Shown here: piece after piece, positions 8,377 to 11,772 of the stretch | Numbering within the stretch: the first letter of the stretch is position 1 | How the letters are laid out: the number at the start of each line of letters is the position of its first letter | IMG/VR virus record: IMGVR_UViG_3300020576_004709 | Span: 9,819 to 73,818 of that record | DNA length: 64,000 nt | DNA from: a virus | Lineage: Duplodnaviria; Caudoviricetes | Reading direction: 5' to 3' (one strand) | Notes under the pieces: generated by a model | What the model was told of the DNA's origin: nothing | The model's input: only the letters and a program-made list of their open reading frames with translations | The model's database searches: none | Translations under genes and position numbers: made by a program

Positions 8377-8450
8377 CGGGGCGTAGTTCTAATTGGCAGA
8401 ACGCGAGATTTGGGATCTTGAGGTTGCCGGTTCGAATCCGGCCGCCCCGA
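8377..8450 (+). tRNA. tRNA-Pro (TGG), CCA not encoded
   Basis: Acceptor CGGGGCG/CGCCCCG, D stem GTTC/GAAC, anticodon arm CGAGA-TTTGGGA-TCTTG, T arm GCCGG-TTCGAAT-CCGGC. Confidence 0.93.
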
Positions 8451-8452
8451 CT

Positions 8453-8529
8453 CTACCGGAGTCCGATATTGGTTTCGCGGAACGCGACTGTGAATCGCGG
8501 CCTTGCGGGTTCGATTCCCGTCCGGTAGC
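8453..8529 (+). tRNA. tRNA-His (GTG), atypical
   Basis: Acceptor CTACCGG/CCGGTAG, anticodon arm CGCGA-CTGTGAA-TCGCG, T arm GCGGG-TTCGATT-CCCGT, discriminator C; A at position 8, 12-nt D-loop, no G-1, no CCA. Confidence 0.85.
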
Positions 8530-8562
8530 CTCCGGCAATGACGCCGGGAAGGAGTTCAGCGA

Positions 8563-8959: not shown

Positions 8960-8995
8960 TTTACGGTTGACATATCCGCAGGCCGGCGTTAGAAA
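8960..8995 (+). promoter_or_regulatory. promoter of the Y RNA cluster
   Basis: TTTACGG-TTGACA-N17-TAGAAA; predicted +1 near 9001-9002 coincides with the 5' end of Y RNA 1. Confidence 0.65.
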
Positions 8996-9001
8996 GGTGT
9001 G

Positions 9002-9059
9002 GCGGGCCGAATGGCGACGGTTACCTTTGTAAATCTCCGTCGTCAACAACCTTGTCCGC
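9002..9059 (+). ncRNA. Y RNA 1 (minimal, Ro60-binding)
   Basis: Terminal helix GCGGGC(C)GA / CTTGTCCGC with bulged C, then TGGCGACGG/CCGTCGTCA upper stem; lies upstream of Ro60. Confidence 0.8.
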
Positions 9060-9072
9060 AAATTTGAAATCT

Positions 9073-9164
9073 CGGGGAAGGGGCGAATGGTCGCCGCGAT
9101 TGTCCGAACTTGCCTCACCGGGCCGATGGACGTCGCAATCGAGTTCGATTCTTGAATTCCCCGC
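9073..9164 (+). ncRNA. Y RNA 2, tRNA-shaped, circularly permuted YrlA-like
   Basis: Acceptor CGGGGAA/TTCCCCG, D arm GGCG-AATGGT-CGCC, T arm TCGAG-TTCGATT-CTTGA; anticodon arm replaced by GCGAT/GTCGC, GTCC/GGAC and a Ro site CTTGCCT-CACC-GGGC(C)GA. Confidence 0.8.
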
Positions 9165-9165
9165 T

Positions 9166-9229
9166 TGGTTGGCCGAATGGTTAGGGTTCTCAGCCAAAAG
9201 AACGCCCTAGCCAAAAAACTTGCCAGCCA
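9166..9229 (+). ncRNA. Y RNA 3 (minimal, Ro60-binding)
   Basis: Terminal helix TGGTTGGC(C)GA / CTTGCCAGCCA with bulged C, upper stem TGGTTAGGG/CCCTAGCCA. Confidence 0.8.
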
Positions 9230-9236
9230 TTTTTCG

Positions 9237-9275
9237 GCCCGGTCGATCTCCTTGGAGGTCGGCCGGGCTTTTTTT
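9237..9275 (+). terminator. intrinsic terminator between the Y RNAs and Ro60
   Basis: GCCCGGTCGA/TCGGCCGGGC stem followed by T7. Confidence 0.85.
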
Positions 9276-9299
9276 GTGCCCGTCACAGAGGGAACGTAC

Positions 9300-10895
9300 A
9301 TGCGAATCGCCGAACACGTCTCGCCGAAGGCCACCCCGCAGACGGAGCCGATCCCGCACAAGCCGATGGTCCAGAACTCGGCCGGCGGCTACTCGTTCGC
9401 CGTGGACGATTGGGCGCGGCTCGATCGCTTCCTCGTCCTCGGCAGCGACGGGGGCACCTACTACGCGACCGAGCGGGCCTTGACCGTCGAGAACGCGAAG
9501 TCCGTCGTCGCGTGCGCCAAGGCCGACGCCGCCGAAGCGGTTCGCAGGATCGTCGCCGTCTCGGATGCCGGCCGCGCCCCGAAGAACGACTACGCGGTAT
9601 TCGCGCTCGCCCTCGTCGCGGCCCACGCGGACGGGCCGGGGAAGTCCGCGGCATACTCGGCCGTGCCGAAGGTCTGCCGCATCGGGACGCACCTGTTCCA
9701 GTTCGCGTCGGCCTCGAACGCGCTTCGCGGTTGGGGCAAGGGCCTCCGCGCGGCCATCGGGAACTGGTACGCATCGCAGGAGCCGAAGAACTTCGCTTTC
9801 CAGGCGATGAAGTACCAGCAGCGGGACGGGTGGAGCCACCGCGACTTGCTCCGGCTATCGCACCAGAAGTTCGAGAACGCGGATTCGAACGCCGTCGCGC
9901 GCTGGGCGGTGAAGGGGTGGGAATCCGTCGGCGAGCAGCCGCACGAGAACCCTAACCTCGCGCCAATTTGGGCCTTCGAGCGGGCGAAGCTAACCGAATC
10001 GGTCCCGGAAATCGTGAAGCTCATTTCCGAATACCGGTTGCCGCGCGAGTGCGTCCCGACGAAGTTCCTGACCGAGCCGGCGGTGTGGGAAGCGCTCCTC
10101 GATCACATGAACATGACGGCGCTCATCCGCAACTTGGCCACGATGACGAAAGTCGGACTGGTCAAGCCCATGTCGAACGCGCTCGTCCAGGTCGTCGGGA
10201 AACTCGGCGACATCGACGGAATCAAGAAGGCCCGCGTCCACCCGCTCGCGCTGTTGGTCGCCCTCGTGACCTACGCCTCGGGCCGCAGCGTCCGGGGCAG
10301 CGCCGAATGGAAGCCGGTCCAGCAGGTTTCGGACGCGCTCGACCGCGCGTTCTACCGCTCCTTCGAGGCCGTGGAGCCGACCGGCAAGCGGTTCCTGCTC
10401 GGGGTGGACGTCTCCGGCTCGATGGGAAGCAACGAAATCGCTGGCATGGCCGGGATGACGCCGAGGGTCGCCGCCGCCGCGATGGCGCTCGTGACGGCCT
10501 CCACCGAGAAGCTGTATCACGTCATGGGCTTCTCGAACCAGTTCGTCCCGCTAAACGTCAGCCCGCAGATGCGCATGGACACGGTCGTGCAGAACATCAG
10601 CGGACTCCCGTTCCAGGCGACCGATTGCGGCCTGCCGATGGTCTACGCGATGCAGAACAAGATCCCGGTCGATACCTTCATCGTTTACACCGACAACGAG
10701 ACCTACGCCGGTCCGATTCACCCGAAGCAGGCGATCGACCGCTACCGCCAGGCGACCGGCATTCCGGCGAAGCTCGTCGTCGTGGGCATGGCCTCGAACG
10801 GCTTCACGATCGCAGACCCGTCGGACGCCGGTATGATGGACGTCGTCGGCTTCGACACCGCAGCGCCGGCTGTCATCGCCGACTTCTCCTGCTGA
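9300..10895 (+). CDS. rsr: Ro60/Rsr TROVE-domain RNA-binding protein with vWA domain
   Basis: NSAGGYSF...RLDRFLVLGSDGGTYY, KYQQRDGWSHRDLLRLSH, ALIRNLATMT, MIDAS VDVSGSM, VYTDNET; RBS GAGGGA. Confidence 0.95.
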   Translation: MRIAEHVSPKATPQTEPIPHKPMVQNSAGGYSFAVDDWARLDRFLVLGSDGGTYYATERALTVENAKSVVACAKADAAEAVRRIVAVSDAGRAPKNDYAVFALALVAAHADGPGKSAAYSAVPKVCRIGTHLFQFASASNALRGWGKGLRAAIGNWYASQEPKNFAFQAMKYQQRDGWSHRDLLRLSHQKFENADSNAVARWAVKGWESVGEQPHENPNLAPIWAFERAKLTESVPEIVKLISEYRLPRECVPTKFLTEPAVWEALLDHMNMTALIRNLATMTKVGLVKPMSNALVQVVGKLGDIDGIKKARVHPLALLVALVTYASGRSVRGSAEWKPVQQVSDALDRAFYRSFEAVEPTGKRFLLGVDVSGSMGSNEIAGMAGMTPRVAAAAMALVTASTEKLYHVMGFSNQFVPLNVSPQMRMDTVVQNISGLPFQATDCGLPMVYAMQNKIPVDTFIVYTDNETYAGPIHPKQAIDRYRQATGIPAKLVVVGMASNGFTIADPSDAGMMDVVGFDTAAPAVIADFSC

Positions 10896-10954: not shown

Positions 10955-11431
10955 ATGGAAATTCGATACGGCGATCAGGTTATTCCCAAGCGGGCATTTG
11001 TCGAGTTCCTGAGCGATTCTGGCCGTGAAGCGTCCTATTTCACGGACGGCACGAACTGGAACACGGAGCCGGGCGACATCGTCGGCAACCTGCTCGCGCT
11101 CCGGGAGAAGTGGAAATCGCAAACCGGTCGACCGTCCATGCCGAAGGCGGATGCCGAGTCCCTCGTCGAGAGGATCGAAGGCATGATCGCCGCCGGAAAG
11201 GTCGATCGTCAGCAGGCCGAGGAAGCCATCGCCGCCATCCGCCGGGACGCCGGCCTTCTCCCTCTGCCCATCGTCGTTTCAGAGGCCGAGAAGATGGCCA
11301 TGATCCGCGACGGCGTCTTGCAAGAGTTTTTCGGCCAGACGAGCCGCTTGCACTGCTTGCCGCTGGTTGTTCTCAATTCTCCGGTCGATCAGTCCGAAGC
11401 TATTCCAGTTGTGGTTGATCGAAAGAAGTAA
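10955..11431 (+). CDS. hypothetical protein
   Basis: MEIRYGDQVIPK...; AAAGGA RBS. Confidence 0.7.
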   Translation: MEIRYGDQVIPKRAFVEFLSDSGREASYFTDGTNWNTEPGDIVGNLLALREKWKSQTGRPSMPKADAESLVERIEGMIAAGKVDRQQAEEAIAAIRRDAGLLPLPIVVSEAEKMAMIRDGVLQEFFGQTSRLHCLPLVVLNSPVDQSEAIPVVVDRKK

Positions 11432-11436
11432 TCGCA

Positions 11437-11772
11437 ATGGTCGAAATCCTCGACGGACCGGCCGAAGGCGAATCCCTGAGCCTCCGGCGGTCCCCGCTCT
11501 TCCTCCGCGTCGTTCGGTCCCGAACCGGCCATTGGGACGGGCTCGACCAACTCGACGACCAGCCGAAGGCCACGGAGACGATCTTCGTCTACCTGCGGCA
11601 CACCCAGGACACGCCGATTCACTTCAAGATGCAGCGACGGAGTGAGAGCGGATGGTACGCCCGGGCTACTTACAAGCTGTTTTCGGTTCAACCGGCCGAC
11701 TGCGACGCACGGGACAAATTTCGATGGCAGGAGTGGTGCGTCGAACAGGCGAAGAAAAACCCCGGCCAGTGA
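11437..11772 (+). CDS. hypothetical protein
   Basis: ILDGPAEGESL..RRSPLFLRVV...WDGLDQLDDQP. Confidence 0.7.
   Translation: MVEILDGPAEGESLSLRRSPLFLRVVRSRTGHWDGLDQLDDQPKATETIFVYLRHTQDTPIHFKMQRRSESGWYARATYKLFSVQPADCDARDKFRWQEWCVEQAKKNPGQ

Follow-up and report, generated by a model that had tools for sequence, protein, structure and literature searches.

YrlA RNAs (Rfam RF02553) have been described as resembling circularly permuted tRNAs whose acceptor stem is closed by a loop (Chen 2014, PMC4201824; Wang 2018, bioRxiv 10.1101/312249, the latter including a YrlA crystal structure). In the current picture, bacterial Y RNAs mimic tRNAs in circularly permuted form and lack a free acceptor end, and this picture guides ideas on their binding partners. 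A second group of Y RNAs includes Yrn1 of Deinococcus radiodurans, in which the Ro helix occupies the acceptor position (PMC4201824). Here we analyze a stretch of 64,000 nt from a virus of the Caudoviricetes (Duplodnaviria; IMG/VR record IMGVR_UViG_3300020576_004709, positions 9,819 to 73,818), called the window below. It contains a tRNA-shaped RNA at 9073-9164 that is the middle one of three RNAs, lying between two Y RNAs of ordinary topology (Y RNA 1 and Y RNA 3) and upstream of a gene for the Ro60 protein (rsr). Coordinates refer to the 64-kb window, and all features listed are on its + strand. We consider it probable that 9073-9164 encodes a Y RNA of about 92 nt with native tRNA connectivity, in which a hairpin-closed Ro60 site replaces the anticodon arm, and which would be released by tRNA enzymes and bound by Ro60.

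Architecture of the tRNA-shaped RNA

The minimum-free-energy fold of 9073-9164 is a cloverleaf. Its two ends form an acceptor stem of 7 bp (9073-9079/9157-9163), which is followed by a D arm (9082-9095) with the loop AAUGGU, containing GG. A T arm of 5 bp with the loop UUCGAUU (9139-9155) leads back to the acceptor; A9156 is unpaired and C9164 is the discriminator. The anticodon arm is replaced by an arm of 41 nt with a 4-nt loop. Ten pairs and one bulge make up its stem (9096-9106/9127-9136), an internal loop AAC follows (9107-9109), and the arm ends in the Ro60 site, composed of CUUGCCU (9109-9115), the loop CACC (9116-9119) and GGGCCGA (9120-9126), with C9124 bulged. The register of the ends is ambiguous by 1 nt: either the acceptor is closed by C9073-G9163, with A9156 bulged and C9164 as discriminator, or it starts with G9074-C9162, has a G-A mismatch at the seventh pair and leaves G9163 as discriminator. 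A preliminary description of the locus had proposed this tRNA connectivity from the terminal acceptor, the GG of the D arm and the T loop, together with an extended stem ending in CUUGCCU-CACC-GGGC(C)GA whose Ro strands are reversed and capped by a tetraloop. Both proposals are borne out by the reading given here, and Y RNA 3 does begin 1-2 nt past C9164, as had been stated.

The Ro-site strands match those in Y RNA 1 and Y RNA 3; relative to these neighbors, their order is reversed, and they lie 4 nt apart under the CACC cap. The conserved bulged-C helix GGNC(C)GA/CUUGNCC is present and aligns at high posterior to the consensus of the class described below. The whole hairpin is nearly identical to CUUGCCCUCACGGGCCGA in units of Limnoglobus (locus L083) and a related contig (L085).

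With YrlA the RNA shares a gene on the same strand beside rsr, D and T arms able to form an elbow, and a Ro60 module at the position of the anticodon stem. The order of the modules is different: YrlA runs from the Ro 5' strand through the V arm, T arm, loop-closed acceptor and D arm to the Ro 3' strand, whereas 9073-9164 runs from the acceptor 5' strand through the D arm, Ro hairpin and T arm to the acceptor 3' strand. The preliminary description took a terminal Ro stem and a loop-closed acceptor as standard for YrlA, which agrees with PMC4201824, 10.1101/312249 and the actinophage copies discussed below, and its placing of 9073-9164 as the permuted form holds, given a D arm before the T arm, an open acceptor and a hairpin-closed Ro site. 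Furthermore, 9073-9164 has both metazoan-like bulged-C strands, while in the YrlA RNAs of Salmonella and M. smegmatis just the 5' strand can be made out. The bulged-C helix is also found in Yrn1, metazoan Y RNAs and the stem-bulge RNAs (sbRNAs) of nematodes, and Yrn1 shares in addition a D-like element 5' of the T arm. Unlike in these RNAs and in Y RNAs generally, however, the Ro helix of 9073-9164 is not built from the 5' and 3' ends but is an internal hairpin, and the ends make the acceptor.

Features in common with canonical tRNAs are the 7-bp terminal acceptor, the GG of the D loop, a T loop of the UUCRANN type, a discriminator and the lack of an encoded CCA. In contrast to them, the RNA has no 5-bp anticodon stem with a 7-nt loop, carries a 41-nt protein-site arm and stays below the thresholds of tRNA detectors. 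The tRNA-like processing signals of the mascRNA type, to the extent that 10.1101/312249 cites them, fall under the same comparison. According to the citation in that preprint, the circularly permuted tRNA genes of red algae and one archaeon mean that the tRNA shape exists in both connectivities. As presented there, those genes are precursors of real tRNAs via a circular intermediate, and nothing suggests such an intermediate for 9073-9164.

A covarying class of RNAs linked to rsr

A scan of viral contigs with a single Rsr protein gave nothing, but a scan based on an alignment of Rsr homologues succeeded, so that 80 viral and 80 cellular Rsr loci could be retrieved. Further loci of the closest Rsr proteins came from Limnoglobus roseus, Fimbriiglobus ruber and metagenomic relatives. 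Loose regular-expression scans ('TTG..loop..CCGA', cloverleaves) were very noisy and were used for seed picking only. A covariance model of the long form, R1, produced 91 matches in the viral and 373 in the cellular loci. Of the cellular matches, the best 150 of 373 entered the alignment. With a length of at least 90 nt, the motif of the Ro 5' strand and an intact acceptor as requirements, at least 127 units passed, distributed over 73 Rsr loci (22 viral, 51 cellular). The cellular loci with such units belong to Chloroflexota, Armatimonadota, Myxococcota, Planctomycetota and Verrucomicrobiota. The preliminary description had supposed the permuted form to be rare; it turns out instead to be a common layout.

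The modules of the class follow one another as acceptor 5' strand, D arm, stem, (A)ACUUGCC, short loop, GGGCCGR, return strand, GUUAYC, an optional V-arm hairpin, T arm and acceptor 3' strand, and the consensus Ro hairpin is CUUGNC-short loop-GGNCCGR. With YrlA the class shares a GNCGAA-type motif, the YUAY/GUUAUC motif and the V arm. In the alignment of the best 150 cellular matches, paired cells make up 93.7%, both partners have changed in 32 of the 33 pairs, and covariation is strong in every helix. The covariation score of these matches is 0.533, compared with 0.150 after shuffling (none of 500 shuffles reached 0.533) and at most 0.087 when the partners were slid. For the terminal acceptor helix, pairing amounts to 98.9%, with covariation in all seven pairs, and the loop that closes the Ro helix is as short as 3-8 nt in 84 of 114 units. 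In the 9.4-Mb genome of Limnoglobus roseus all four long matches are located within 2.2 kb upstream of rsr, and the remaining matches are all ordinary tRNAs of about 72 nt. The class is thus shown to be real, conserved, covarying and exclusively linked to rsr.

Tandem arrays offer a way to distinguish tRNA order from YrlA order, as in the latter the acceptor would be formed between neighboring units. In 17 pairs of tandem neighbors, the acceptor strands of one and the same unit form 6.97 of 7 pairs; across units, as YrlA would have it, the figure is 4.7 of 7, close to the random null of 3.9, which supports tRNA connectivity. The classical YrlA order was read in Mycobacterium phage Alice (NC_028986.1) and Gordonia phage Cashline, where Ro 5' strand, V arm, T arm, loop-closed acceptor (UUCG in one Cashline copy), D arm and Ro 3' strand succeed each other. 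The partial R1 matches in these two actinophages do not represent the new form, since inspection identified them as classical YrlA. The tRNA-connectivity form and YrlA are circular permutations of one design. In Alice, the annotated hypothetical proteins gp218 and gp219 (L170:2607-2946) coincide in position with two RNAs upstream of the Ro gene, the classical YrlA and another Y RNA, and are probably spurious calls of coding sequences over non-coding RNA genes.

For the window copy itself, a second covariance model, R2, was built from a seed of 13 short forms of other loci, excluding the window sequence. In the whole 64-kb window it matched 9074-9163 end to end (23.0 bits, E 3.6e-4), and a true tRNA-Pro was the only match with a higher score. 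R1 also aligns 9073-9164 end to end (R1 positions 1-121), with 12.1 bits. The full-length alignments to both models place the copy within the module order of the class, and it shares the same-strand proximity to rsr.

Several variants were seen among the units. In the long-form units the V arm (A6, L083-L168; for example L072:1867-1988, L080:270-389 and L027:2159-2281) has a 7-nt loop in 63 of 114 cases and is separated from the T stem by about 5 nt. These 7-nt loops bear an anticodon-loop signature, with Y1 in 53, U2 in 56, R6 in 58 and A7 in 42 of the 63 and positions 3-5 variable, and the V arm may be a relic anticodon arm, 5' of which the Ro arm was inserted. As a third sub-type, tRNA-like units of about 85 nt from Gemmataceae-like loci (L174:875-962, L175:413-497, L083:2865-2950, L084:2871-2953) lack the D arm and keep the acceptor stem, the Ro hairpin arm, UUAUC and the T arm. 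On the contig with the closest Rsr (64%), the unit L172:403-509 (= L173:210-316) has a hairpin UUUGCCC-GUAA-GGGC followed by UUCAA in place of CGA; the 5'-strand Ro motif is apparently lost, and three ordinary Y RNAs come after it. C is the discriminator in 57 of 138 tRNA-shaped units compared with 5 of 60 neighboring ordinary tRNAs, and CCA is encoded in 11 of the 138 compared with 18 of the 60 (A5, A6). A pattern for short-form relatives in the viral contigs (GCCGATGG, 8-22 nt, GTTCGATTC) was discarded, as nearly all of its hits were ordinary tRNAs by R2.

The phage locus, predicted processing and competing explanations

The significance of 9073-9164 rests on comparison, because its fold stability is unremarkable, ARAGORN responds only when relaxed and Rfam is silent. 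A number of observations weigh against the assignment of the window copy to the class as a working Y RNA. Its fold is not significantly stable by itself (z = -1.70; 11 of 200 shuffles equally stable), and its scores of 12 and 23 bits in R1 and R2 are modest. ARAGORN missed it at default settings and found it at the relaxed -ps80 as a tRNA with a 9-nt intron; neither the Rfam tRNA model (RF00005) nor YrlA (RF02553) matched it at gathering or at E up to 10, and the tRNA model nevertheless detects many class members. Copies of the phage locus in two other samples are 100% identical in the RNA region, so that no covariation is available for this copy. In its sequence, G8 G9 stand for the U8 A9 of the class, the D loop has 6 nt instead of the typical 8, and the arm is separated from the T stem by only 2-3 nt, where the class has a variable loop of 4-5 nt or a V arm. 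An extra A9156 or a G-A mismatch disturbs the junction of acceptor and T arm. Compared with the GNCGAAN0-1G motif of YrlA and the YUAY at the start of its V region, GCCGAUGG is one A short, and GCAAUC takes the position of GUUAUC/GUUAYC. Expression, processing and Ro60 binding of 9073-9164 are predicted from its sequence. Compact relatives of 95-97 nt occur at other loci (L009, L059, L104), and the window copy reads as a reduced, divergent and compact member of the tRNA-connectivity class.

The three RNAs appear to form a unit of their own. A promoter-like site at 8967-8995 (TTGACA, 17-nt spacer, TAGAAA), proposed from reading the sequence, has its predicted start at about 9001-9002, the first paired base of Y RNA 1. 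It did not come up in a scan for consensus promoters, because its second hexamer lacks the final T. Y RNA 1 (9001-9060; fold z = -2.85) has a helix of the 5' strand GGCGGGC(C)GA with the 3' strand UUGUCCGC and carries GGUUACC in its inner stem-loop; in Rfam it gives a weak full-length match to Deinococcus_Y_RNA (20.5 bits). Y RNA 3 (9166-9234; z = -4.46, 0 of 200 shuffles) pairs the 5' strand UGGUUGGC(C)GA with the 3' strand UUGCCAGCCA, followed by a U5 tail. Both contain the GGNC(C)GA 5' strand and the UUGNCC 3' strand, with a helix extension specific to each unit. The unit is ended by an intrinsic terminator found in a terminator scan (9236-9276; 15-bp stem and a run of T7), and Rfam matches to sX11, sX13 and CyaR near Y RNA 3 were disregarded, as they are driven by the terminator hairpin. 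The start codon of rsr lies 24 nt farther on and 136 nt downstream of the tRNA-shaped RNA, on the same strand. The gene (9300-10895) encodes 531 aa with Pfam matches to TROVE (1.3e-40) and vWA_Ro60 (4.6e-65), belongs to PHROG 850 and has 64% identity to the Rsr of Limnoglobus roseus. For the two open reading frames 3' of rsr (10955-11431 and 11437-11772), neither Pfam nor PHROG gave a match, and they provide no hint of an effector.

Upstream of the promoter-like site, a 121-aa open reading frame separates it from two tRNA genes called by ARAGORN, tRNA-Pro (8377-8451; 61.3 bits with the Rfam tRNA model) and tRNA-His (GUG; 8454-8530), both without an encoded CCA. The tRNA-His is atypical; it is below gathering in the Rfam tRNA model, and its top match in the clan is tRNA-Sec with 22.9 bits.

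In the proposed pathway, one transcript would run from about 9001, initiated at the promoter near 8967, to the terminator at 9236-9276 and hold all three Y RNAs. RNase P would cut at 9072/9073 or 9073/9074 (U9072 precedes), leaving Y RNA 1 with a 3' trailer of 13 nt. RNase Z or an equivalent 3' pathway would cut just past the discriminator and thereby make the 5' end of Y RNA 3; a cut at this place is expected because CCA is not encoded, as in the phage's own tRNAs. The phage Ro60 would then bind the hairpin site, and the tRNA-like elbow of D and T arms and the free acceptor end could be offered to a partner that recognizes tRNAs, as has been proposed for YrlA. There is precedent in the YrlA of M. 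smegmatis, an RNase P substrate in vitro that acquires CCA in vivo (PMC4201824). Binding of Ro60 to a hairpin-closed site appears plausible, because Ro60 mainly contacts the 5' strand (PMC4201824). On the other hand, when Xenopus Ro60 is in complex with Y RNA, the terminal helix is reportedly forced apart, according to the summary in PMC12135203, and a tetraloop four pairs from the bulge might hinder such an opening, which adds to the points against the proposed reading. As the preliminary description also suggested, the RNA might gain CCA, serve as a Ro-tethered tRNA decoy or represent an intermediate between tRNA and Y RNA.

An open-ended Y RNA begins within 22 nt past the discriminator in 18 of 128 units compared with 42 of 3000 random positions, an approximately tenfold excess. 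The suggestion that processing at the tRNA ends of the middle RNA also frees the neighboring Y RNAs gains indirect support from this arrangement. It could be taken further: Y RNAs directly abut 9073-9164 on either side, the juxtaposition recurs at other loci, and the window copy is reduced in comparison with its class, so that the tRNA shape might mainly be a punctuation signal for excising Y RNA 1 and Y RNA 3, with the middle piece as a by-product and its Ro site of minor importance. We regard this as unlikely, since a plain tRNA would be an equally good mark, 114 units conserve the bulged C as well as the two strands of the Ro helix, and many units are solitary or in tandem with each other and not beside ordinary Y RNAs. 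It is quite unlikely, too, that the phage carries a decaying, non-functional copy taken from a planctomycete host. The departures from class-invariant positions, the low scores and the lack of variant copies for a selection test would fit decay, but no helix is broken (the acceptor has 7 bp, the D stem 4-5 bp, the T stem 5 bp and the arm 10 bp), T loop and Ro site both keep the canonical form, the RNA is set among a promoter, flanking Y RNAs and a terminator, and there are the compact forms at other loci.

The absence of a 7-nt anticodon loop on a 5-bp stem, and an insert that is the Ro motif of the neighbors, make it very improbable that 9073-9164 is a true but unusual tRNA, or a tRNA pseudogene with, for instance, an interrupted anticodon arm, unrelated to Ro60. 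The cloverleaf, the canonical T loop, the relaxed ARAGORN call with its intron and the real tRNA genes 540 nt upstream could be cited for such an origin; the confinement of the class to rsr loci and the failure of the Rfam tRNA model even at E 10 speak against it. A last possibility is that adjacent repeats only simulate the tRNA order, and that the RNA produced is connected in the way published for YrlA. In tandems with near-identical acceptors the Rfam YrlA model can indeed reach from one unit's T arm to the D arm of the following unit (L080 336-448, 37.9 bits). For the window this is extremely improbable and already contradicted by the sequence: only one tRNA-like unit is present, so that a cross-unit reading does not arise and a second partner strand is missing, the Ro hairpin has a loop of just 4 nt, and cross-unit pairing is near the null over the 17 tandems.

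Novelty, relation to YrlA and further observations

The tRNA-connectivity class is apparently undescribed in print. Full-text searches of the accessible papers yielded no description of a Y RNA of this form, and an earlier one may exist in reviews or comparative-genomics work. Chen et al. dropped matches overlapping with tandem tRNA genes of the annotation and reported few YrlAs in cyanobacteria and delta-proteobacteria (PMC4201824). In a set of 20 cellular loci where the new form is abundant, no YrlA reached the Rfam gathering score of 69 bits, and about 25 units scored above the Rfam tRNA threshold. Because many members, as in these loci, exceed tRNA gathering, they are probably annotated at present as tRNAs or pseudo-tRNAs. 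If the form is widespread, lineages in which YrlA searches failed, such as the delta-proteobacteria and cyanobacteria in Chen 2014, may be using it. If many Ro60-linked RNAs have an open acceptor, it becomes plausible that RNase P, RNase Z and the CCA-adding enzyme act on them, and perhaps further enzymes of the acceptor end as well.

The two connectivities also provide a testable route for the evolution of YrlA from tandem tRNA-like genes. From the Ro hairpin of one unit to that of its neighbor, the sequence already reads as a YrlA, with Ro 5' strand, T arm, acceptor 3' strand, spacer, acceptor 5' strand, D arm and Ro 3' strand. We tentatively raise the possibility, still a doubtful one, that YrlA arose from tRNA-connectivity Y RNAs by tandem duplication, or the reverse, and that the free-ended RNAs are also matured, CCA-tailed and perhaps charged while carrying Ro60. 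If true, this would give a concrete form to the published origin model for YrlA, a dimeric tRNA transcript, in the outline in which PMC4201824 and 10.1101/312249 cite it, and would place Ro60 in tRNA pathways across many bacterial phyla and their phages. As arrays beside rsr are found in two cultured Gemmataceae, Limnoglobus roseus and Fimbriiglobus ruber, experiments are feasible.

Some further RNAs at Rsr loci deserve mention. Small open-ended Y RNAs alternate with tRNA-shaped units at L083:2426-2494, L103:1055-1126 and 1890-1959, and L111:330-398. Their Ro helix is strikingly metazoan-like, as they reach the gathering score of the Rfam model for nematode stem-bulge RNA (RF01656) with 39.6-42.8 bits. 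On viral contigs near Rsr, tRNAs of 95-96 nt whose variable arm is long and whose anticodon appears to be CUA (L048:1149-1243; L061:1593-1688, = L062) are possible amber suppressors. Finally, dense arrays of ordinary tRNAs, with at least 10 in 6 kb, surround many cellular Rsr loci (L149, L140, L136, L142, L145, L150, L152).
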